Of a stretch of DNA of 64,000 nucleotides, positions 55,091 to 64,000 are shown piece by piece. Below the pieces are notes generated by a model. It saw nothing but the letters and a program-made list of their open reading frames with translations, ran no database searches and was not told where the DNA came from. A program made the position numbers and the translations under genes. Origin of the DNA: Acidobacteriota bacterium (GTDB lineage Bacteria > Acidobacteriota > Vicinamibacteria > Fen-336); NCBI GenBank assembly GCA_032127875.1, contig JAQBHI010000158.1, positions 4,626 through 68,625 on the forward strand. Direction: 5' to 3'. Position 1 is the stretch's first letter. Every line of letters starts with the position of its first letter.

Positions 55091-55928
55091 CTCCCGTGGC
55101 CACGGGCAGGCTGGGGTCGGAGCTCCACTCGCTCCAGCTCCCGCCGTAGAGGCGACCTCGCAGGCCGGCGAGATCCAGGGCCAGCAGGTCGTGGCAGGCG
55201 GTGACACCCGAGCCGCAGTAGACGATGGGCTCCTCGCGATCGGCGCCGAGGCTGGCATAGCGGGTGCGAAGCTCCAGAGGCGAACGGAAGACCGGCGAAG
55301 GATCGGCCGTGAGGTTGTCGGAGTACGGCGCGCTGCGCGCGCCGGGAATGTGACCCGCCCGCGGGTCGATCGGCTCGAGCTCCCCACGGTAGCGTTCGGC
55401 CGCACGAGCATCGAGAACCACGGCCCCGGGATCCAGCGCCAGCATCTCGGCCTTGCTGAGCACCGCCCCGGGCCGGGCGCGGGGCGTGAAGGTCGCAGGC
55501 TGGATTGCCGGCGCCCGCGTATCGACGGGACGACCCTCGGCCTGCCACTTCACGATCCCGCCGTCGAGCACGGCCACCGCTTCATGGCCGTAGGCGCGCA
55601 GCAGGAACCACAGCCGCGCGGCCACCGCGCCGGCCTGGTCGTCGTAAGCGACCACCTGCGTCCTATCCCCCACCCCGGCGCCTGTCATGACACGGGCCAC
55701 CTGCGCGGCATTCGGCCAGGGATGTCGACCCAGCGGACCGCCGCGCCGGCCGCCGGGGGCCGCCAGGCCTTCTTCCACGTCGAGGAACAGCGCCCCGGGG
55801 ATGTGGCCGGCCTGCCAGGCATCCCGCCCGCGCCGGGCGGGATCGAGATACCAGCGCACGTCCACGATGCGCAACTCGCCGTCGGCCAGATGCTCGGCGA
55901 GCCAGTCGGTATCGACGAGCGCCCCCAC
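55083..55928 (-). CDS. Thiosulfate / 3-mercaptopyruvate sulfurtransferase (tandem rhodanese).
   Basis: Two rhodanese domains with the active-site loop CGSGVTAC. 281 aa. Confidence 0.85.
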   Translation of the reverse strand: MGALVDTDWLAEHLADGELRIVDVRWYLDPARRGRDAWQAGHIPGALFLDVEEGLAAPGGRRGGPLGRHPWPNAAQVARVMTGAGVGDRTQVVAYDDQAGAVAARLWFLLRAYGHEAVAVLDGGIVKWQAEGRPVDTRAPAIQPATFTPRARPGAVLSKAEMLALDPGAVVLDARAAERYRGELEPIDPRAGHIPGARSAPYSDNLTADPSPVFRSPLELRTRYASLGADREEPIVYCGSGVTACHDLLALDLAGLRGRLYGGSWSEWSSDPSLPVATGDA

Positions 55929-55931
55929 GGC

Positions 55932-56699
55932 CTACTGGATCATCTTCTTCATCGGCGAGTCGCCTCGCTTGAAGCCAGCCGGCACCTCGAACGCGGAAGC
56001 CGGAATCGGGCCCCGCCTGATCTCGGTGACCTCGCTGGTGTTCGTGGAAGACTTGCCCATGACCTTCACCGAACTGCTGTGAAACAGCGGGAAGCCCTGC
56101 ATTGTCTTCATCTTCTCCTGCATTTCCGCGATGCCCTTGCCCATCGGACCCATCGACTGTCCGATCGACGCCAGCGACTCGGACAGCTCCTTGTAACGCG
56201 TCCAGGCCTGGGTGGGAATCGGGACTTCGCTGGAGATGCACTGCTCCGACGACATCATCTCGCCCATCTTCATCGTCCAGCTCTCGCAGGAGTAGCCGGC
56301 GATCTTCCTGGCCACCCCGGTCTTCTGCACGCTGAGCGAGGCGCCCGCGCCGCCCATCATCTTGGCCATCATCTCGCGGGCTTGAGGCGGCATGTTCTTC
56401 ATCTGCTCGTCCATTTTTTTCATCTGTTCCTGAAGCTTCGCTGTCATGGCGGCGAGGTCCTGCGCCGTGATGACGTAGTACTCCTTCTTCTTGGAGTCGA
56501 TCACGGTCATGTTGCCGCTGGCCGCGTCCAGCAGGAATTCCTGACCCTCGGCCTGGGACATGCGGATGTGGTCGTTCGTCAGATAGTTGGTGCTGGTTCC
56601 TGCGGGGGCACCGTCGCGGGTGAGCTTCGAGACGATGGTCAGGTCTTCGGCCGCAGCGCTGGCCACGGCGAAGCACGTCGCAAGTACGAGAGCGCGCAT
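55932..56699 (-). CDS. Secreted Met-rich hypothetical protein (DUF4412-like).
   Basis: The start is at MRALVLATCFAVASAAA, a signal peptide. Met-rich repeats follow (MKKMDEQMKNMPPQAREMMAKMMGG). Confidence 0.55.
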   Translation of the reverse strand: MRALVLATCFAVASAAAEDLTIVSKLTRDGAPAGTSTNYLTNDHIRMSQAEGQEFLLDAASGNMTVIDSKKKEYYVITAQDLAAMTAKLQEQMKKMDEQMKNMPPQAREMMAKMMGGAGASLSVQKTGVARKIAGYSCESWTMKMGEMMSSEQCISSEVPIPTQAWTRYKELSESLASIGQSMGPMGKGIAEMQEKMKTMQGFPLFHSSSVKVMGKSSTNTSEVTEIRRGPIPASAFEVPAGFKRGDSPMKKMIQ

Positions 56700-56776
56700 C
56701 AGAGCAAGCCTCCTTCGAGAAGAGCGAATGAAAAGCATAGCATGGGGCACGCGGCCCGCCCTGCTATACTCGGCCA

Positions 56777-57103
56777 GTGCCCAGGCCGGAGCGTCACGTT
56801 CTCATTTGCCTCAACAGGCGGCCCCCCGGCAACCCGAAAGGCTCGTGCGCGGAGAAGGGCTCCGAGGCGCTCTACGATGCGTTGCGCGACCGGGTCAAGG
56901 CGCGCGGGCTGCGCGGCCGGGTGATCGTGAACCGCACCAGCTGCCTCAAGCACTGCTCTCGCGGGGTCACCGTCGCGGTTTATCCCGACAACGTGTGGTA
57001 CGCAGAGGTCACCGATGCGGACCTCGACGAGATCTGCGTCGCGCACCTCGAGGGCGGCCAGCCTGTCGGACGCCTCGCCATGCCCGACATCCCCTGGGAG
57101 TGA
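56777..57103 (+). CDS. Thioredoxin-like [2Fe-2S] ferredoxin.
   Basis: A four-Cys pattern (C..C...C..C) in about 108 aa, with VLICLNRRPPGNPKGSCAEKG...CLKHCSRG. Confidence 0.7.
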   Translation: MPRPERHVLICLNRRPPGNPKGSCAEKGSEALYDALRDRVKARGLRGRVIVNRTSCLKHCSRGVTVAVYPDNVWYAEVTDADLDEICVAHLEGGQPVGRLAMPDIPWE

Positions 57104-57109
57104 GCGGCG

Positions 57110-57460
57110 CTACTTCCGGGTGGAAAGCTTCCGGCCCACCGCGGGATTGACGCGGGCCAGTTCCTTCAGAAACACCGTGGCGTCGATGGCGCCGTCGCGC
57201 AGGAACTGGCTCACCTCGCGCGCAAACTCGGCCACGACCTCGCGATCGCTCGAGGCTTCCTTGTGGACGACGGTGCGCTTGTGAAGGCGCCCGTCACCGA
57301 TCAGGCGCTTCACGAGGCTCACGCGCGACGAGCTCCACAGCCGGTAGCCTTTCTTGTTACGCGGGGGTTCCGGAACCTTGCCCGCGTACAGCCAGTTCAG
57401 CAGCGTTTGTTTGCTGACCTTCAGCTCGTGAGCCACCTCGAGGGTGGTCAGGTATTTCAT
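57110..57460 (-). CDS. Excisionase/MerR-type helix-turn-helix DNA-binding protein.
   Basis: The start at MKYLTTLEVAHELKVSKQTLLNWLYAGKVP is an HTH_17-like block. The track ORF is trimmed. Confidence 0.65.
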   Translation of the reverse strand: MKYLTTLEVAHELKVSKQTLLNWLYAGKVPEPPRNKKGYRLWSSSRVSLVKRLIGDGRLHKRTVVHKEASSDREVVAEFAREVSQFLRDGAIDATVFLKELARVNPAVGRKLSTRK

Positions 57461-57616
57461 CGGGAGCCAGGCGGCGATTCTCTCCGATCCCATGAGCGCC
57501 CGTCAACGAACCGGCCAAGCCGTGGCACAATCACGCCCTTGTCCGGCACGGCCGGGAATAGGAGGCGGGCGCTCTCGTTCCTGACGTATTGGGGATGCTG
57601 GCGTACCCAAGAACTG

Positions 57617-58111
57617 TTGAATCGAGAAGCAGGTTTCGAAAAGGAAGCGCTTCCCCAGTGGAGAAGCCTGTTCCGCACCGCGTGTCGCCTGACGCGGAAC
57701 GCGCACGATGCCGAGGATCTCGTGCAGGAAACCATGCTCAGGGCCTATCGTGGCTTCGATCGCTACCAGCCGAACACCAACATCCGGGCCTGGCTGTACA
57801 CGATCCTGCACCGGGTCCATCAAGATGGCCTGCGCCGCAAGCGCCGCTCGCCCGGTTTCGACGAGCTCCCCGAGGATGGTCCCGCTGTGAAGCCGGCGCA
57901 GGCCTTCGTGGCCGCGGGCGGCGAGGATCTCGCCCGGGCGCTCGCCCACCTGGCAGAGCCCTATCGTTCGGCGGTGGTGCTGCGCGACCTCGAGGAGCTG
58001 AGCTATCAGGAGATCGCGCACATTCTCGAGGTGCCCGTGGGCACGGTGATGTCGCGGATCCACCGCGGACGCGCGCAGCTGCGCAAGGCCCTGCTCGGGG
58101 ACCAGCCGTGA
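57617..58111 (+). CDS. ECF-family RNA polymerase sigma factor.
   Basis: Region 2 (DAEDLVQETMLRAYRGFDRY) and region 4 (LSYQEIAHILEVPVGTVMSRIHRGR) are both present. A TTG start is assumed; the true start is uncertain. Confidence 0.8.
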   Translation: MNREAGFEKEALPQWRSLFRTACRLTRNAHDAEDLVQETMLRAYRGFDRYQPNTNIRAWLYTILHRVHQDGLRRKRRSPGFDELPEDGPAVKPAQAFVAAGGEDLARALAHLAEPYRSAVVLRDLEELSYQEIAHILEVPVGTVMSRIHRGRAQLRKALLGDQP

Positions 58112-58842
58112 GCTGCAATCCCGAGCTCGTCACCGGCTACGTGGACGCCGCGCTCGACGACGCGGCCCGCGCCGAGGTCGAGGCGCACCTGGCGGAATGT
58201 GCGGTCTGCCGCGAGCAGGCGGAGGCCGAGAGGCAGCTGCGCGCCGCGCTGCGCACGCTGCCCGCGGCCGAGCCCCGCCGGGGCTTCGAGGCCGATTTAC
58301 GCCGGTCGCTGCTGCGCGCTCGACCCTCGCCCCTGCGCATGTTGCTGCCGATCGCTGCAGTGCTGGTCCTGGCTTTCTTCGGGGGCCTGCGGCTGCCGGG
58401 CGTGCTGGCCTGGGAGCTAGCACGCGATCACAAGAACTGCTTTGGTCAGGAATCCCTGCCCGCCGAGGTCTGGGGTGGCGACGCCGCGGTGATCGTCCGC
58501 TGGTTCGAGGCCCATGGCACGAGCCTGCCTCCGATCCCCGACGGCGCCGGTGGCCTGAGCCTGGTGGGCGGGCGTCGCTGCCCGCTCGTCGATCGATCCG
58601 TCGCGCACCTGTTCTATGCCGCGGGCAAGCGGCGCGTTTCGCTCTTCGTAGTACCCGGCTCCGTGGCGCTGAGCGACCGCTACCAGACCACGGCGCGCCA
58701 CGAGGCGGTTCGCATCTTCCAGGTCGCGGGCCAGCTAGTGGGCGTGGTCGGCGAAAATGAAGACGATGTGCGCGCCTTCGAGCGTAGCTTTCGTTCGACC
58801 AGCGCCTCGACGAGCCGCGAGGCTGGCGAGCCGGAGGTTTGA
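58108..58842 (+). CDS. Anti-sigma factor (zinc-finger type, membrane-spanning).
   Basis: The GTG overlaps the sigma-gene TGA. HLAECAVCREQ is an HxxxCxxC motif. One TM helix (LLPIAAVLVLAFFGG). Confidence 0.7.
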   Translation: MSCNPELVTGYVDAALDDAARAEVEAHLAECAVCREQAEAERQLRAALRTLPAAEPRRGFEADLRRSLLRARPSPLRMLLPIAAVLVLAFFGGLRLPGVLAWELARDHKNCFGQESLPAEVWGGDAAVIVRWFEAHGTSLPPIPDGAGGLSLVGGRRCPLVDRSVAHLFYAAGKRRVSLFVVPGSVALSDRYQTTARHEAVRIFQVAGQLVGVVGENEDDVRAFERSFRSTSASTSREAGEPEV

Positions 58843-58882
58843 CCCGCAGCGCGCGCCTTGATAGCATCGCGTTTTCTCGCCG

Positions 58883-58959
58883 TGGGGCTGTAGCGCAGTT
58901 GGGAGCGCGCGTGAATGGCATTCACGAGGTCAGGGGTTCGATCCCCCTCAGCTCCACCA
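58883..58959 (+). tRNA. tRNA-Ala (anticodon GGC).
   Basis: Cloverleaf: acceptor GGGGCTG/CAGCTCC with a G3:U70 pair, D-arm GCGC-AGTTGGGA-GCGC, anticodon stem CGTGA/TCACG with loop ATGGCAT, T-arm AGGGG-TTCGATC-CCCCT, discriminator A then CCA. Confidence 0.9.
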
Positions 58960-59085
58960 ACTCCAGCAATGATTTAGCGAGACAGGGAATCGGCGAGGCG
59001 GCCGATTTGTCCATTTCTTGTCCATCCTGGCGCGAACACCGTGAAACCGTGCGGGACGTCTTGGAATCAAGGGCCTGACTCAAGC

Positions 59086-60528
59086 CTACGCTCGGGGCGT
59101 CTTCAAGCAGCCCGACGCGCACGGGTTACCATCCGCCGGCCGCGACGAGCTACTGCGAGAAGCTCTCGTCAGGTTTGCACTCGGCCTCTCTAGGCCAGAG
59201 TGCGCACATGTACGAGATGCTGGGCCAGAAAGAGCGCGACCAGCTGCACGCACAAGACCGCCGAGGCACTCTGGGAGCGAGCTACACCAGGTCCCAGTCC
59301 TTCGACACACCACGGAGCAGCTTGGCCACGTGGTTTGATCCTCCCAAGCCTCGGGGAGTCTCTCCATGAGCAAGTCGTAAACGCCCACGGGTGGTGGTGG
59401 GGCCTGCACGACCGCGTCTTCGGTCAGGACACCTGCCGGAACGTCTTCGCCGAGCACACTGGCCGGTCCCGCCGTGAGCCACAGGCTTCCTGCCTTCACG
59501 GCCTCACGGAGGGCGCTATCGAGAGCGGCGGCGTCGGCCTTCGGGATGCGGACCGGCTCGTCGTACCCGCCCTTCTTGACCTTCACGATTCGGTCACCGG
59601 AGAAGTAGCTACGAAGGTCCTTCACTCGCAGCTCGGGACCGGCCCAGAGGTCGGGGAGCGCGCCGGGTAGCAGCAGAGCCGGCGCCACATCGGATAGCGT
59701 GGCGGCTTCGGGCAGTACGAACTCGAGCCCGGGGTCCTTCAGGTCGGCCTCATCCGGCTCCTGCCGCCAGAGGGTTCGGACGCTCCGATCGGGCCGGGTC
59801 ACGCGCAGGACAAAGTGGCCCTTCCGGCAGCCCAACACGATCGTGTCGAGGATCGCCGAGCGGCTGAGCATCTTGGGGAGATGCGGGAACTGCGCGAACG
59901 CGCCGACGAGGTCCTTCACGCGCCGCGACGTCTCGCCCTCACGCCACAGGTCGTAAGGACCCCCGGGCAACAACGCGTCGGCACTGACTGCGGTCTCCTG
60001 GATCCGGCTGCGCGCATCCCCCTTGATCGTCGTGAACAGAGGGTAGTCGCCGGCCGTGACCTTGAAGGCCTGCACCTCGTTCTTGTCCGAAACCGTCACC
60101 ACCACGCAGTAAGCTTGCCGGATACCCGCGAACACGCGCTTCCGGGCCGTATCAAGGTTCGCCAGAAGTGTCGCTTCGCGGATCGGATCGAGATCCCCGC
60201 GTTCGAGCTGGCTTCTCACCTCTTCCCAGGCGAGGTAATCGCGGATGGCGCCGCGGGTCACGTCGAGCGCCTCTCGCGAGGGAACAGCCAGGACGACGGC
60301 GTTTCGATAGACGCGCGGCCGATCGGCGCCGGTCGTCTCTTCGAGGAACCGACGAGCCTCGGCGTTGGGCTTGCCCGTCTCCGAGGCCGCCTTCGGCCCA
60401 AGGACGGCGAAGTGGAACTCGCCGTCGTCCTCGATGTTGCGCGGCTTCTCAGGGAGGTTGTGGACTCGGGCTCCCGCCGGGCCTGCTCCCACCGTGAGGC
60501 TCTTGAGCTTCCCGATCTCGTCGAGCAC
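59086..60528 (-). CDS. Uncharacterised 480-aa protein, the first gene of the tRNA-Ala island. A C-terminal frameshift is possible.
   Basis: The GTG start at 60528 has an AT-rich divergent intergenic region upstream. There is no signal peptide and no recognisable motif. The last ~90 aa are low-complexity S/R/C/G. The adjacent frame ends ...HVAKLLRGVSKDWDLV* at 59282, suggesting a frameshift near 59340. Confidence 0.55.
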   Translation of the reverse strand: MLDEIGKLKSLTVGAGPAGARVHNLPEKPRNIEDDGEFHFAVLGPKAASETGKPNAEARRFLEETTGADRPRVYRNAVVLAVPSREALDVTRGAIRDYLAWEEVRSQLERGDLDPIREATLLANLDTARKRVFAGIRQAYCVVVTVSDKNEVQAFKVTAGDYPLFTTIKGDARSRIQETAVSADALLPGGPYDLWREGETSRRVKDLVGAFAQFPHLPKMLSRSAILDTIVLGCRKGHFVLRVTRPDRSVRTLWRQEPDEADLKDPGLEFVLPEAATLSDVAPALLLPGALPDLWAGPELRVKDLRSYFSGDRIVKVKKGGYDEPVRIPKADAAALDSALREAVKAGSLWLTAGPASVLGEDVPAGVLTEDAVVQAPPPPVGVYDLLMERLPEAWEDQTTWPSCSVVCRRTGTWCSSLPECLGGLVRAAGRALSGPASRTCAHSGLERPSANLTRASRSSSSRPADGNPCASGCLKTPRA

Positions 60529-60607
60529 CTTCGCCTCGAGTCGGTCCTACGGGATTTCCTGGACAGGATCATTGTCTGAATATACACTGTTGTCCTGACT
60601 GGGCAAC

Positions 60608-61657
60608 ATGCTATCTAGCGACAACGAACTAGTCCGGCTTGCTGCGGAGGAAATTGGCCGACTCCTGCCGCTAGGCTGGCGAATCGAGGGGAGCGCCATA
60701 GAGCCGCGAAATTCCGCCGTTGACGGACGAGCCTTCATCGTCGCCCCCGACGGCCGACGCGCCATCGTGCTTATCGAAGCGAAACGCAGTCTCGACCCGC
60801 GCGGAGCGAGCGAACTGGCGAGGCGCCTCGGGATAGAACTGCCTGGCGAGGCCGTCATCGTGGTGTCGCCTTACCTGGCTGCCAGCGTTCGTGATCGGCT
60901 CAAAGCGTCCGGCCTCGGCTACGTCGACTTAACCGGCAATGCGCGCCTGACACTCAGCAGCCCTGGCTTACATCTCGAAACCACCGGGGCCGATTCCGAC
61001 CCCAACCCTTCCCTGCGCCCGACCCGTTCCCTACGTGGACCCAAGGCCGGCAGAGTTGTTCGGGTCCTGTGTGACTCGCGGGAGCCGGGCGGCGTCAGAG
61101 ATCTCGCCGCCAAGACTGGCCTTGATCCGGGCTATGTGTCCAGGATCCTCGCGTTGCTCGATCGGGAGGATCTCGTCGAGCGAGACCCGCGAGGTCGCAT
61201 CCTCAAGGTCGAGTGGGAACGGCTCCTTCGGCGCTGGGCGCAAGACGTGCCGTTCGAGAACCGCGGCCAGGCATCCTCATACTTGGAACCCCGCGGCTTG
61301 CCGGCTCTGCTCGAACGACTCCCGCAGAGCCGACTGCGCTACGTCATTACGGGTTCACTCGCCGCCTCCAGGCTGGCGCCAATTGCACCGCCGCGACTGG
61401 CCACCCTTTGCGTGGAGAGCCTCGATCGCGCTGCCGAGGAATGGAGCCTTCGCCCGGCCGAGGCCGGTGGCAACGTCGTGCTCGTCCTGCCGACCGACGA
61501 CTGGGTCTTCGCGGGTGCCGGGGAGGTTGCGGCAATCAAGTATGCCGCTCCGAGTCAGGTGGCGGCCGATCTGCTGACGAGCCCAGGGCGCGGGCCGGCC
61601 GAGGCTGAGGAACTATTCCGCTGGATGACGGCGAACGAGGAGAAGTGGCGTGGATGA
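60608..61657 (+). CDS. AbiEi-like putative antitoxin/regulator: an N-terminal PD-(D/E)xK-like region and a central winged HTH.
   Basis: …VAPDGRRAIVLIEAKRSLD reads as a D..E.K nuclease-like motif. The wHTH is GVRDLAAKTGLDPGYVSRILALLDREDLVERD. Its 3' end overlaps the downstream nucleotidyltransferase gene by 8 nt. Confidence 0.5.
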   Translation: MLSSDNELVRLAAEEIGRLLPLGWRIEGSAIEPRNSAVDGRAFIVAPDGRRAIVLIEAKRSLDPRGASELARRLGIELPGEAVIVVSPYLAASVRDRLKASGLGYVDLTGNARLTLSSPGLHLETTGADSDPNPSLRPTRSLRGPKAGRVVRVLCDSREPGGVRDLAAKTGLDPGYVSRILALLDREDLVERDPRGRILKVEWERLLRRWAQDVPFENRGQASSYLEPRGLPALLERLPQSRLRYVITGSLAASRLAPIAPPRLATLCVESLDRAAEEWSLRPAEAGGNVVLVLPTDDWVFAGAGEVAAIKYAAPSQVAADLLTSPGRGPAEAEELFRWMTANEEKWRG

Positions 61658-62477
61658 ACTTTACGTTCTGGCCAGGAGCGTCCTGCTCGATGCCCTGGAA
61701 GCCTTGGGTCCGCACCGGCAGGCATGCGTGCTTGTCGGAGCCCAGGCTATCTATCTGAGAGTCGGCGAAGCGGACCTCGCCGTAGCGCCATTCACGACGG
61801 ACGGGGATCTCGTCATTGATCCGCGCCGTCTTTCAGACGCGCCGCCCATCGAAAGGGGTCTCCTGGCAGCGGGGTTCGAACTCAGGGGTGGAGACAGCGT
61901 AGGGATTTGGGTGACACGACGGGAGACACACAGCCACGCCGACGTCGAGGTCGCGGTCGACATGCTGGTGCCCGAAGCCGTCAGTCCGGGATCTGGGCGA
62001 AGGGCAGCCAAACTCCAAGGCCATGAGCCACGTGCCGCGAGAATCGCGCGCGGATTGGAGGCGGTCCTTTTCGACGCTGACTTGATGCGGGTAGCTGCCC
62101 TCAGCGATTCGGACGCGCGTGGCTTTGATGTCAGCGTGGCCGGCCCTGCAGCCCTTCTGGTCTCGAAGCTCCACAAGATCGCCGACCGAGCCGGCTCTCC
62201 GCGCGCCAAGGACAAGGACGCCTACGACGTGTTGCGCCTTCTTCGCGGCACGACTGCCGCTGAGATGGCGACCCGAGTTCGCCGGTTTCGCGCTGAGCCG
62301 CTCAGCAAGGCAGTGACAGTCGAAGCGCTGGGTCTTCTGGGCTCTTTCTTCGGACGGGCCGACGGAGTCGGGTCCCAGATGGCCGTCCGAGCCGCGCGCG
62401 GGTTGGCCGACGCGCAGGAAATTGCGGTGTCCTGCGTGGCTCTCGCCGAGGAGATGCTTGACGCGCTTCGTGACTGA
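61650..62477 (+). CDS. AbiEii/DUF1814-family nucleotidyltransferase (putative type IV TA / abortive-infection toxin).
   Basis: The nucleotidyltransferase-fold motif is VGAQAIYLRVGEADLAVAPFTTDGDLVID (G[GS] then DxD). The C-terminal block ...LLVSKLHKIADRAGSPRAKDKDAYDVLRLL matches the family. Confidence 0.65.
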   Translation: MDELYVLARSVLLDALEALGPHRQACVLVGAQAIYLRVGEADLAVAPFTTDGDLVIDPRRLSDAPPIERGLLAAGFELRGGDSVGIWVTRRETHSHADVEVAVDMLVPEAVSPGSGRRAAKLQGHEPRAARIARGLEAVLFDADLMRVAALSDSDARGFDVSVAGPAALLVSKLHKIADRAGSPRAKDKDAYDVLRLLRGTTAAEMATRVRRFRAEPLSKAVTVEALGLLGSFFGRADGVGSQMAVRAARGLADAQEIAVSCVALAEEMLDALRD

Positions 62478-62754
62478 TCTTCCTACCACGCTATGCCTGT
62501 CGCGGCGCCCGACAGCCTTAGCCGGCGCTTCACCGAGGCCGTCTTGGGGACGGGCTCAAGGGCGTCCGCGTCCCGAATGAATCCTCCGGAAGCGGCAGCG
62601 TGACGGACCAGGCCTTGCGCGTCTCCCGGCGCGCCCGGCCCTTCTGGAGGTGTTTACCGCCGTTCGTCAGCCATGCAAGAGCCTGCTCCGGCTTGGCGGC
62701 CGATCGGCTGCTGCTGAAGATGGTCCGTTGGCCACGGCACAGCCCGGGGCCCAA

Positions 62755-62810
62755 GAGAATGGCATTCACGGGATCACGGGTTCATCCCGTCAGCCCTCGG
62801 TGGCTCCAGC
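62755..62810 (+). repeat. Degenerate direct repeat of the tRNA-Ala 3' half (putative decayed att site).
   Basis: GAATGGCATTCACG is identical to tRNA positions about 58914-58927. It is followed by GGATCACGGGTTCATCCCGTCAGC, compared with the tRNA's AGGTCAGGGGTTCGATCCCCCTCAGC. Confidence 0.6.
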
Positions 62811-62851
62811 GGGCCCGCCCGAACGGTGCGGTCGTGGTGGGGCCACGCCAC

Positions 62852-62883
62852 TTGACCCCGGTGGTATGTCGGGGTCATACTAT
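62852..62883 (+). promoter_or_regulatory. Promoter with an overlapping inverted-repeat operator upstream of mazE.
   Basis: TTGACC (62852-62857), a spacer, then CATACT/TACTAT as the -10. A perfect 7-bp inverted repeat GACCCCG…CGGGGTC spans the spacer. The ATG follows about 6 nt after the -10 region. Confidence 0.35.
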
Positions 62884-62887
62884 TTTC

Positions 62888-63124
62888 ATGAAGGTGGCAG
62901 TTTCCATACCCGATCCGATCTTTCGTGAAGCGGAGCGGATCTCCCGCCGCATCCGGGTGCCTCGCAGCCAGTTCTACGCCCATGCCCTCGAGGCCTACGT
63001 GCGCGAGCGATCTGGCGAAGACGTCACGGAGCAGCTCAACGAGGTCTACGCAAGGAGCTCGGCGAAACTCGATCCCGCCACTGAAGCGCTCTCACTCGAG
63101 ATCCTGAGGCGGGAGAAGTGGTAG
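62888..63124 (+). CDS. mazE: MazE/PemI-like antitoxin.
   Basis: 78 aa. MKVAVSIPDPIFREAERISRRIRVPRSQFYAHALEAYV has the SpoVT/AbrB-like antitoxin pattern. It overlaps the mazF start by 7 nt. The track ORF is trimmed. Confidence 0.65.
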   Translation: MKVAVSIPDPIFREAERISRRIRVPRSQFYAHALEAYVRERSGEDVTEQLNEVYARSSAKLDPATEALSLEILRREKW

Positions 63125-63462
63125 CCCGGCGCGGCGAGATCTGGTGGACGGATTTCGGGCAGCCATTTGGATCGGAGCCGGCCTACCGCCGGCCGGCGCT
63201 GCTTATTCAGGCGGACGCGTTCAATCGGAGCTCGATTGCGACGGTTCTCCTGATCCCGCTCACGAGAACCGTCGCCCTGGCCTCAGCGCCGGGCAACGTC
63301 TTGTGCCGTCCCCGCGATACCGGGCTGCCGAAGCCGTCCGTGGTGAACGTCTCACAACTCACCGTCGCGGACCGGCGGAGGCTCATCGAGAAGGCGGGAG
63401 CTTTGCCGGGACGACTCCTGAAACAAGTGGAAGACGGCCTGCGACTCGTGCTCGAGCTCTGA
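63118..63462 (+). CDS. mazF: MazF/PemK-family endoribonuclease toxin.
   Basis: GEIWWTDFGQPFGSEPAYRRPALLIQ...IATVLLIPLT...APGNV...VNVSQLTVADRRRL is the canonical PemK/MazF sequence. 114 aa. Confidence 0.85.
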   Translation: MVARRGEIWWTDFGQPFGSEPAYRRPALLIQADAFNRSSIATVLLIPLTRTVALASAPGNVLCRPRDTGLPKPSVVNVSQLTVADRRRLIEKAGALPGRLLKQVEDGLRLVLEL

Positions 63463-63529
63463 TTCTCCCGCCCGGCGTGGCGAGGCCCACGAAAGCCTCG
63501 TCCACGCCCGCTGGATCCAGGCCCGCGGC

Positions 63530-64000
63530 CGACGCTGTGACCGCCTACGCGGGCTTGATGTTCTGGTTGACCAGCGCGTGTTGCAGCGCGATCCGGCCGG
63601 GGCGTACGCGAGCATGGATTTCCTGAGTCGCGACCGCTACCGCCAGGCCGTGGAGAGCGGACACTCGGCGGATCGCGCCGCCCACGTCGGCCACCACCCT
63701 CATCGGCAAGGGCCGCCCCGACCTCGAGACGGACGTCGCCTATCGTCCTCGCCTGGACCGGCGGGCGCGACGGTTCCTCTTCGCCCATGTGACCGCTGTC
63801 TACCTCGGGTTGATCGGGCTCGTGACGGCCCTCATCCTGAGCCTCGGGGTCAGCTACCTCAACGGGCAGGGCGCATCAGCCTGGGTCTTCGGCCGGCGCC
63901 GCGCTCCTGTTGTTGCTGCCGGCCAGCGAGGTGGCAATCGGCCTCGTCCAGCGCCTGGTTGTCCGTTGGGCACCACCGCGACGCCTCCCCCGCCTCGAGT
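63530..64000 (+). pseudogene. 5'-truncated, frameshifted fragment of a large membrane glycosyltransferase-like gene (possibly cyclic-glucan-synthase/NdvB-like). It runs off the right edge.
   Basis: Protein-like sequence continues across three different frames: …VLVDQRVLQRDPAGAYASMDFLSRDRYRQAVE…, then …RRFLFAHVTAVYLGLIGLVTALILSLGVSYLNGQ…, then …ALLLLLPASEVAIGLVQRLV…. No start codon or N-terminal region is present. Confidence 0.4.

Follow-up and report, generated by a model that had tools for sequence, protein, structure and literature searches.

Modules probably stacked by serial integration behind a tRNA-Ala(GGC) gene in a Vicinamibacteria-type Acidobacteriota genome

The DNA analysed here, hereafter the window, comprises 64,000 nucleotides of an Acidobacteriota bacterium (lineage Vicinamibacteria, Fen-336; GenBank assembly GCA_032127875.1, contig JAQBHI010000158.1, positions 4,626 to 68,625 of the forward strand). 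Its sole tRNA gene, as detected with ARAGORN, is a tRNA-Ala(GGC), which is followed by small modules of toxin-antitoxin and defence genes delimited by displaced copies of the tRNA 3' half. This region is very probably an accretion array, that is, the outcome of serial integration by tyrosine integrases at the anticodon stem-loop of the tRNA-Ala gene and of subsequent deletional decay.

According to this scenario, the array, which spans base 58960 to beyond base 64000, would hold the remnants of several integrative elements inserted successively into the tRNA 3' half by tyrosine integrases, with a crossover near tRNA nt 28-31, within the anticodon stem-loop. On every insertion the tRNA would be rebuilt from the nt ~30-76 borne by the element, together with a trailer arm of ~180 nt, and the previous copy would be displaced distally. 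Later deletions would have removed the integrase and most of the cargo, sparing toxin-antitoxin pairs and a defence remnant. Module 1 (58960-62756) consists of an arm, a DUF499 pseudogene and an intact two-gene nucleotidyltransferase (NTase) module, and module 2 of a first mazEF pair (mazEF-1), a GH94 fragment and a second pair (mazEF-2) located beyond the window; module 2 ends at a second tRNA copy and its arm, with more DNA after it. We infer the order of these events, and the toxin-antitoxin pairs presumably persist because their loss is counter-selected (addiction).

Displaced tRNA copies and the integration site

The first displaced copy of the tRNA 3' half (copy 1) lies on the same strand as the tRNA and is decayed (Table 1). 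Its core, GAATGGCATTCACG at 62757-62770, is identical to the tRNA at 14/14 positions; beyond it, the T-arm carries substitutions and two 1-nt deletions, the acceptor end is mutated, and the trailer motif CTCCAGC closes the copy at 62804-62810. The local alignment score of this copy is 46, the next real match in the window reaches 25, and the best-in-window scores of 60 shuffled queries average 24.6 +/- 1.8 with a maximum of 30. The expected number of chance matches for a 27-mer with <=3 mismatches is 0. Furthermore, a profile made solely from the copies of other genomes retrieved copy 1 at E = 1.6e-5.

Three short-read contigs of the same strain, obtained from three runs (L002, L003 and L004; compared contigs and loci are designated by L and a number), overlap the window with 99.9-100% identity (99.96-100% for L002 and L003) and reach beyond it. 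The source population is represented by runs ERR5010711, ERR5010721 and ERR5010722. Past the window, the GH94 fragment ends at ~64213 and is followed by mazEF-2, a ribbon-helix-helix (RHH)/PemK pair, then by copy 2 with its arm (L003 2036-2161, ~64890-65015 in window-equivalent coordinates) and by further DNA. Copy 2 corresponds to tRNA nt 30-76 at 92% identity with a compensatory T-stem change (L003 2036-2082) and is well preserved in both L002 and L003. Because the array is carried on past the window in these contigs, copy 1 is an internal junction.

A contig from another metagenome bin (L001) displays the order copy 1, mazEF-1, arm remnant, mazEF-2, copy 2, Phd/Doc-like genes, VapBC, DUF6036, and an intact GH94 gene encoding 2742 aa. 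The window is homologous to L001 from position 62737, in copy 1, up to a point 20 nt past copy 2, and since these breakpoints coincide with the copies, the latter are module boundaries. The core flank of the bin of L001 (L015 versus window 55840-58963) is 85% identical to that of the window, whereas the mazEF modules are 95-96% identical and the GH94 sequences 94-99%, a contrast that reflects either a recent interspecies transfer of modules or a chimeric bin. As a separate observation, the region 5' of copy 1 in L001 (86-753) contains open reading frames (ORFs) that by eye resemble a small antitoxin and PIN-toxin pair, at the place occupied by the NTase module in the window.

The displaced copies carry about 20-100 nt of 5' flank that is not derived from the tRNA, GGCCCAAGA in copy 1 of the window and a consensus GAGRCCAAG elsewhere, and all of them have GAGRCCAAG-N-RAATGG in common; with such a common non-tRNA flank, the identity to the tRNA can be placed as starting at nt ~30, in the anticodon stem. 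This junction motif was found in 74 soil-metagenome contigs, many with 2-3 copies 0.3-10 kb apart, and about 60 of these contigs match copy 1, flank included, at 85-91%. A scan of viral contigs with the motif gave 0 matches. We also noticed attachment-site (att) copies only 324-437 nt apart in L086 (577-1455, oriented) and L073 (1842-2377, oriented), a spacing below the length of any gene, and these are therefore bare repeat arrays left after cargo loss.

Over 180 nt, the arm that follows the tRNA in the window shares 85% identity with the arm following the copy located beside the integrase gene of L101; identity is 83% with the arm behind copy 2 in the same strain and 78-81% with the arms of L077, L086, L073 and L019. 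The arm contains two direct 8-nt repeats, and in each of 20 distinct arms the two units agree, being either TTGTCCAT twice or TTGTCTAT twice. That they change together points to protein-binding sites, possibly arm-type integrase sites. Other arm types carry TGTGTCTAC twice or CGTGTCTTGTT twice, and the repeat-bearing arms include those of the window, L003, L019, L035 and L055-L117. As regards the hairpin of the arm, a terminator role is only plausible, because its folding energy is no better than that of shuffled sequences and a single pair covaries (one compensatory pair, CG in eight cases versus GC in eight).

Related loci were reached through homologs of the anti-sigma factor encoded next to the tRNA, and a GTDB scan added 35 loci from Vicinamibacteria/Acidobacteriota metagenome bins. 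The upstream block is conserved and encodes TonB receptors, a sulfatase-TPR protein, rhodanese, DUF4412, DUF1636, MerR, an extracytoplasmic function (ECF) sigma factor, its anti-sigma factor and tRNA-Ala(GGC). Downstream of the tRNA, the DNA differs in every genome (the 35 GTDB loci and L008-L012), and the island genes of the window are absent from every related locus, including 35/35 of the GTDB loci. Copies of tRNA nt 28/30-76 of their own occur 1.8-9.6 kb downstream in L019, L024, L032 and L035, all long-read metagenome-assembled genomes (MAGs), and in L042; the three long loci devoid of an arm (L011, L012 and L026) carry no copies. Among the genes carried by the islands of these relatives are those for sulfatases, a sensor kinase, hydrolases and a TIR effector of the Pycsar type.

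Tyrosine integrase ORFs or tblastn matches lie near the tRNA or a copy in six loci (L051, L101, L116, L083, L059 and L018). The 3' end of the integrase gene is located 50-100 nt from the copy in L051 and L101, those of L116, L083 and L059 are likewise near copies, the integrase of L018 is found 350 nt after the tRNA, and the integrase of L116 combines an Arm-DNA-bind_3 domain (P4-type arm-binding) with a Phage_integrase domain. In the window, neither Pfam searches of the intergenic gaps in all frames nor tblastn with the six locus integrases (E <= 10) detected an integrase, and the same six queries gave no match at E <= 10 in L001-L004.

These results bear on a preliminary description of the region that was made from the sequence alone. 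It had placed a tRNA-Ala(GGC) at 58883-58959 and a degenerate repeat of the tRNA 3' half at about 62755-62810; both exist, the tRNA at 58884-58959 according to ARAGORN and Rfam and the repeat as the 14/14 core followed by the decayed T-arm, and the alignment of the repeat, which that description wished to see compared with chance, scores 46 against a shuffled maximum of 30. The coordinates of all its elements are exact or off by a few bases. It had further depicted a decaying element that had lost its integrase and kept its toxin and defence cargo, which agrees with the intact NTase pair and mazEF-1 and with the negative tblastn and Pfam gap scans. The absence of the region at orthologous tRNA-Ala sites, which it expected, was observed in the 35 GTDB loci and in L008-L012, and relatives with the same gene order but no repeat, which it had named as the contrary case, were not encountered among the 35. 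Other points had to be revised. Copy 1 had been taken as the boundary of the island, and the array runs past base 64000 in the same-strain contigs; one or two tandem integrations at the tRNA 3' end had been proposed, and repeated integration is supported by the flank, the breakpoints and the relatives, but with at least three modules.

Alternative origins of the array

Several observations weigh against serial integration followed by decay. No integrase or excisionase is present, and the islands of long-contig GTDB MAGs are likewise devoid of an integrase (4/4), which implies either that decay alone is very frequent or that the modules are mobilised in trans. Base composition differs little overall, with 65.7% GC in the island versus 67.7%; the GC content at third codon positions of the island genes, 0.70-0.81 as compared with 0.837 +/- 0.063 for 31 core ORFs, leans towards integration, the compositional evidence being weak as a whole. 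The join of the tRNA 5' half to the arm and the DUF499 pseudogene rests on one assembly, with no independent contig. Finally, the presence of an internal GH94 fragment in the array is not accounted for by simple integration and deletion.

In a first alternative, the modules would be live, integrase-less and att-flanked cis-mobilizable mini-elements, which integrases supplied in trans would continue to excise, shuffle and transfer; toxin-antitoxin and defence genes would then use the tRNA-Ala locus as a platform for cassettes. Module 1 (tRNA to copy 1) and module 2 (copy 1 to copy 2) both have att sequences on either side and no recombination genes, as cis-mobilizable elements do, and integrase-less islands with good att copies recur (L019, L024, L032, L035 and L112). 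Moreover, many loci have toxin-antitoxin genes directly 5' of a copy (up to 12 loci for VapC, about 6 for MazEF-2), the breakpoints between the window and L001 fall on att copies, copy 2 is well preserved together with its arm, and the mazEF modules are 95-96% identical where the core flank is 85% identical. This last contrast could nevertheless come from a chimeric metagenome bin, the VapBC modules beside copies are alike only at the protein level, and no circular or empty-site junction was observed. Furthermore, copy 1 is decayed and has no P' arm, so that present-day recombination of module 1 or mazEF-1 is hardly conceivable. On balance we regard this alternative as rather unlikely. A wider proposal, namely that tRNA-Ala(GGC) is in soil Vicinamibacteria an integron-like platform where P4-type integrases, acting in trans, capture small integrase-less modules that each end in an element-type copy of the tRNA 3' half, change their order and pass them from one species to another, appears similarly doubtful; if it held, the platform modules may often amount to one toxin-antitoxin or defence pair, including the PD-(D/E)xK-wHTH/GSU2403-NTase pair described below.

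A partial assembly artefact, either a repeat-driven mis-join of the tRNA to the wrong module or a merging of strains, is improbable. The same-strain short-read contigs stop at tRNA nt 27 (L005 and L006) and resume at nt 65 (L007), many other assemblies break inside the tRNA (L010, L013, L017 and L020), and the bin of L001 mixes 85% and 96% similarity, all of which would fit such an artefact. On the other hand, all other junctions are present at 99.9-100% identity in independent assemblies from three runs, namely that between the DUF499 pseudogene and the partner gene of the NTase (L007) and those from the NTase through copy 2 (L002-L004), and a mis-join would only change the order of the modules, leaving the repeats and the cargo as they are. 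More generally, short-read contigs of this locus (L005, L006, L007, L010, L013, L017 and L020) break inside tRNA-Ala, several of them at nt 27-29, the beginning of the repeated segment; in practice, such breaks signal that att copies are repeated or that strains are heterogeneous at the locus.

Lastly, an ancestral chromosomal region whose repeat is a decaying tRNA pseudogene born from local duplication, with no mobile element involved, would agree with the missing integrase, the small GC shift and a faint likeness of the sequence 5' of the copies to the tRNA D-arm, but is scarcely credible given that the gene order is missing from all 35 related loci, that a specific non-tRNA flank is common to about 60-74 unrelated contigs, that integrases lie beside homologous copies and that the identity to the tRNA always begins at the same tRNA position.

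Two other candidates were examined and discarded. The MerR/HTH_17 gene at 57110-57493 (minus strand) is excisionase-like, but all relatives keep it in the core gene block upstream of the tRNA, and it is therefore not part of the island. An integron was rejected because the genes 5' of the tRNA are the anti-sigma/ECF sigma/MerR core without an integrase and because the repeats are derived from the tRNA and are not attC sites.

Comparison with known islands and significance

Stacked and eroded tRNA islands are a well-documented and ordinary kind of genomic island, and the array leaves current genomic-island concepts unchanged. What is new here is the host lineage, the definition of the att core, junction and arm, and the dominance of toxin-antitoxin pairs among the remnants. 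Islands of the P4 family of tyrosine integrases, as reportedly described by Williams in 2002, lie at tRNA genes and use an anticodon-loop sublocation. The array shares with them a regenerated intact tRNA and a direct repeat running from the anticodon stem-loop to the 3' end. The domains of the L116 integrase (Arm-DNA-bind_3 and Phage_integrase) and the paired arm repeats, which look like arm-type sites, point in the same direction. It differs from them in that no integrase is left in the window, and the pairing of integrase and att is putative here.

The tandem ssrA islands of Dehalococcoides have 3'-end direct repeats and a conserved non-gene motif 5' of each, and some of them lack integration genes (PMC3146451). 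Accretion and cis-mobilizable remnants are also discussed for them. As in the present array, they are stacked behind one small-RNA gene, with 3'-end repeats and a non-gene motif marking the insertion point. However, the Dehalococcoides target is the tmRNA, the recombinase is the serine recombinase DsiB, and the repeat is a 20-bp sequence in the T-loop (PMC3146451), whereas here the target is tRNA-Ala(GGC), the repeat covers ~47 nt from the anticodon stem and is followed by an arm of ~180 nt, the integrases encoded nearby belong to the tyrosine recombinases, and toxin-antitoxin or defence genes make up most of the cargo. The array also recalls the tycheposons of Prochlorococcus, where successive tRNA integrations push older elements inward, partial tRNAs act as separators, and degenerated elements as well as additional partial tRNAs are dispersed over the island (bioRxiv 10.1101/2020.12.28.424599), but the host phylum and the element family are different and the remnants are much smaller here (0.8-4 kb); no tycheposon hallmark gene was seen, without a search aimed at them. 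Likewise, cis-mobilizable elements and site-specific accretion involve att-flanked modules that are free of recombination genes and are stacked beside an integration site (PMC5704250), the differences being that copy 1 is decayed and that mobility in trans is putative in our case. Finally, HipAB stabilises CGI48, a composite island at tRNA-Trp (PMC8978831), which resembles the array by its toxin-antitoxin modules in a composite tRNA island, and addiction is by analogy a plausible reason for survival. The families are different here (MazEF, VapBC, Phd/Doc and the NTase pair), and a stabilising effect is putative.

In Vicinamibacteria-type Acidobacteriota, which form an abundant and little-studied soil lineage, the tRNA-Ala(GGC) gene located right after an ECF sigma/anti-sigma pair is thus documented as a conserved integration hotspot. 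Islands and their integrases can be sought in metagenomes by means of its att core, junction motif and arm. The array also provides a clear example of the erosion of islands to remnants rich in toxin-antitoxin genes and flags a widespread and unstudied two-gene NTase module as a candidate toxin-antitoxin or defence system.

Gene content of the modules

The features of the array are collected in Table 1.

Table 1. Features of the tRNA-Ala(GGC) array, in window coordinates.
Feature	Position	Strand	Basis or remarks
Promoter-like site TTGACC-17-TAGCAT with TG, just 5' of the tRNA	58839-58867	+	Consensus scan, pattern match only
tRNA-Ala(GGC), intact	58884-58959	+	ARAGORN; Rfam tRNA 63.3 bits
Repeated att core (tRNA nt ~30-76)	58913-58959	+	
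Arm after the tRNA (P'-type)	58960-59138	+	Contains ACTCCAGCAA..TTAGCG
Hairpin of the arm	58988-59007		
Two direct repeats TTGTCCAT in the arm	59007-59014 and 59018-59025		11 nt apart, after the hairpin
Annotated 480-aa ORF	59086-60528	-	
DUF499 AAA+ ATPase pseudogene, middle part only	59332-60606	-	tblastn, PADLOC HmaC
Gene of the 349-aa partner protein	60608-61657	+	Pfam HTH_IclR at aa 146-194
Gene of the 275-aa nucleotidyltransferase, PF12281 'GSU2403' family, putative toxin/effector	61650-62477	+	
Decayed att copy 1 (P-arm junction motif and copy of tRNA nt 30-76)	62735-62810	+	
P-arm junction motif of copy 1	62735-62756	+	Ends ..GGGGCCCAAGA
tRNA-derived part of copy 1	62757-62810	Same as tRNA	
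Promoter-like site over an 11-bp-stem palindrome (62853-62877), directly 5' of mazE-1	62852-62881	+	Consensus scan
mazE-1, 78-aa antitoxin candidate, ribbon-helix-helix-like by sequence pattern	62888-63124	+	ORF
mazF-1, MazF/PemK toxin, 114 aa	63118-63462	+	Pfam PemK_toxin PF02452, E = 2.7e-24, full profile
GH94 cyclic beta-1,2-glucan-synthase-like internal fragment	63573-64000, on to ~64213 window-equivalent (L003 position 1359)	+	Comparison with L001

The intact genes of module 1 form the NTase pair. The genes of the partner and of the NTase overlap by 8 nt (61650-61657), as in a bicistronic overlapping operon, and 280 non-coding bases lie 3' of the NTase gene. The NTase scores 23.2 with NTP_transf_8 (PF12281; cut-off 26.3) and 21.1 with AbiEii (cut-off 22.5), and its homologs, which number >2100, are annotated mainly as PF12281 (GSU2403 family in the NCBI nomenclature) and rarely as PF08843. 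The invariant residues G30, D51, D53 and D104 are kept, and the catalytic residues are intact. Its AlphaFold2 (AF2) model has a predicted local distance difference test score (pLDDT) of 90, and its nearest solved folds according to Foldseek are the NTase-like 5uvd, then MenT3/Rv1045 (TM-score about 0.5). The partner belongs to a family of ~2700 clusters at 50% identity, made of ~350-aa proteins, and its AF2 model (pLDDT 95) displays three domains. On the basis of Foldseek comparisons of this model, these would be an N-terminal PD-(D/E)xK-like domain (EndoMS, MspJI), a central winged helix-turn-helix (wHTH; IclR/MarR) and a minimal NTase-like C-terminal domain (MenT1, TM1012). Searches of the Protein Data Bank with the sequences of both proteins gave nothing useful.

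Although the preliminary description had seen here an AbiEi-like/AbiEii pair, only the two-gene NTase pair at that place can be retained: no AbiEi model of Pfam matched the partner, which does not qualify as an AbiEi antitoxin, and the NTase is below the AbiEii cut-off. In common with AbiE and MenAT, the pair has an overlapping bicistron in which a DNA-binding wHTH protein precedes a protein with a predicted NTase fold. With MenAT it would further share the second-best solved match of the NTase model, MenT3 (Rv1045), and the resemblance of the C-terminal domain of the partner to MenT1. It differs from AbiE by an NTase of the PF12281 (GSU2403) family, below the cut-off of AbiEii (PF08843/DUF1814), and by a partner predicted to have a PD-(D/E)xK-like N-terminal domain and a central wHTH where AbiEi has an N-terminal wHTH and an AbiEi C-terminal domain. 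The pair thus resembles AbiE/MenAT at the fold level only, as judged from the models, and is not a demonstrated member of either. A relative keeps it in a defence island, where a type I restriction-modification system flanks it on one side and AlpA/ImmA/Cap4 genes on the other. PADLOC does not include it, and no publication on its function was found. We propose it as a candidate AbiE/MenAT-like toxin-antitoxin or defence system.

Next to this pair, the preliminary description mentioned a divergent and uncharacterised protein of 480 aa, which does not correspond to an intact gene. Judging from its homologs, this ORF is a pseudogene of a DUF499 defence ATPase of the Hma/MANTIS type, related to BREX. 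Only the first ~83% of the ORF aligns with its homologs, which are DUF499 (PF04465) proteins, and the ORF matches positions 545-771 of the 941 of the HmaC profile of PADLOC (E = 3e-10). The tblastn homology (59332-60606) corresponds to aa 264-688 of P0005, a homolog of 831 aa, crosses an in-frame stop at 60547-60549 and stops exactly at the start of the partner gene. The remnant is truncated at both ends and has neither the AAA+ ATPase domain nor the last ~140 aa, and the full DUF499 AAA+ ATPase that Hma or BREX-related defence needs is therefore wanting. Tripartite BREX-related systems are centred on DUF499 ATPases and go by the name Hma in PADLOC (PMC12839542), and the type 2 DUF499 systems have been named MANTIS, with MtsA as the ATPase (bioRxiv 10.64898/2026.09.23.753747). 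The pseudogene is 55-66% identical to DUF499 ATPases over about 425 aa. It differs from the DUF499-centred systems in that only the middle of the ATPase gene is there, without the AAA+ and C-terminal domains, and in that no N6-methyltransferase or helicase gene was found in 58960-64000 (ORF list, PADLOC and Pfam scans).

As for module 2, the mazEF module that had been described after the repeat was recovered, with a mazF gene supported by its full Pfam profile and, upstream, a 78-aa gene without family match. This mazE-1 candidate matched no Pfam or other antitoxin family in the PADLOC and Pfam scans; it overlaps mazF-1 by 7 nt and is 96% identical in L001, and the MazF-1 protein is identical in L001-L004. 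The promoter-like site and its palindrome are probably the promoter and the autoregulatory operator of mazEF-1.

The frameshifted and 5'-truncated gene fragment that had been noted as abutting the island is the GH94 fragment starting at 63573. This fragment of ~640 nt lacks both ends of the gene and shows a frameshift as well as an internal deletion of ~74 nt, as seen in a three-frame translation. It is 94-99% identical to two segments of L001, 5645-5727 and 5802-6360, located inside the intact GH94 gene, and sits between mazEF-1 and mazEF-2, where L001 has only an arm remnant.

Other toxin-antitoxin and defence genes were noticed at related loci. In L001, 79 nt at the start of the DUF6036 gene are 81% identical to the start of mazE-2 (L001 4182-4264 versus L003 1399-1477), which suggests a recombinant gene start. 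VapC-family ORFs belonging to one protein cluster are present in 12 metagenome loci, mostly ending 50-100 nt 5' of a copy; the idea that the VapBC modules beside copies are one spreading cassette was rejected because they are related only at the protein level. The smallest complete arrangement, in L112 (1063-2616, oriented), is a mini-island of 1.4 kb in total with tRNA-Ala, arm, VapBC and att copy. In the tRNA-Ala island of another species, a gene for a CAP12/Pycsar-type TIR effector is located at L035 13489-14409 (minus strand).

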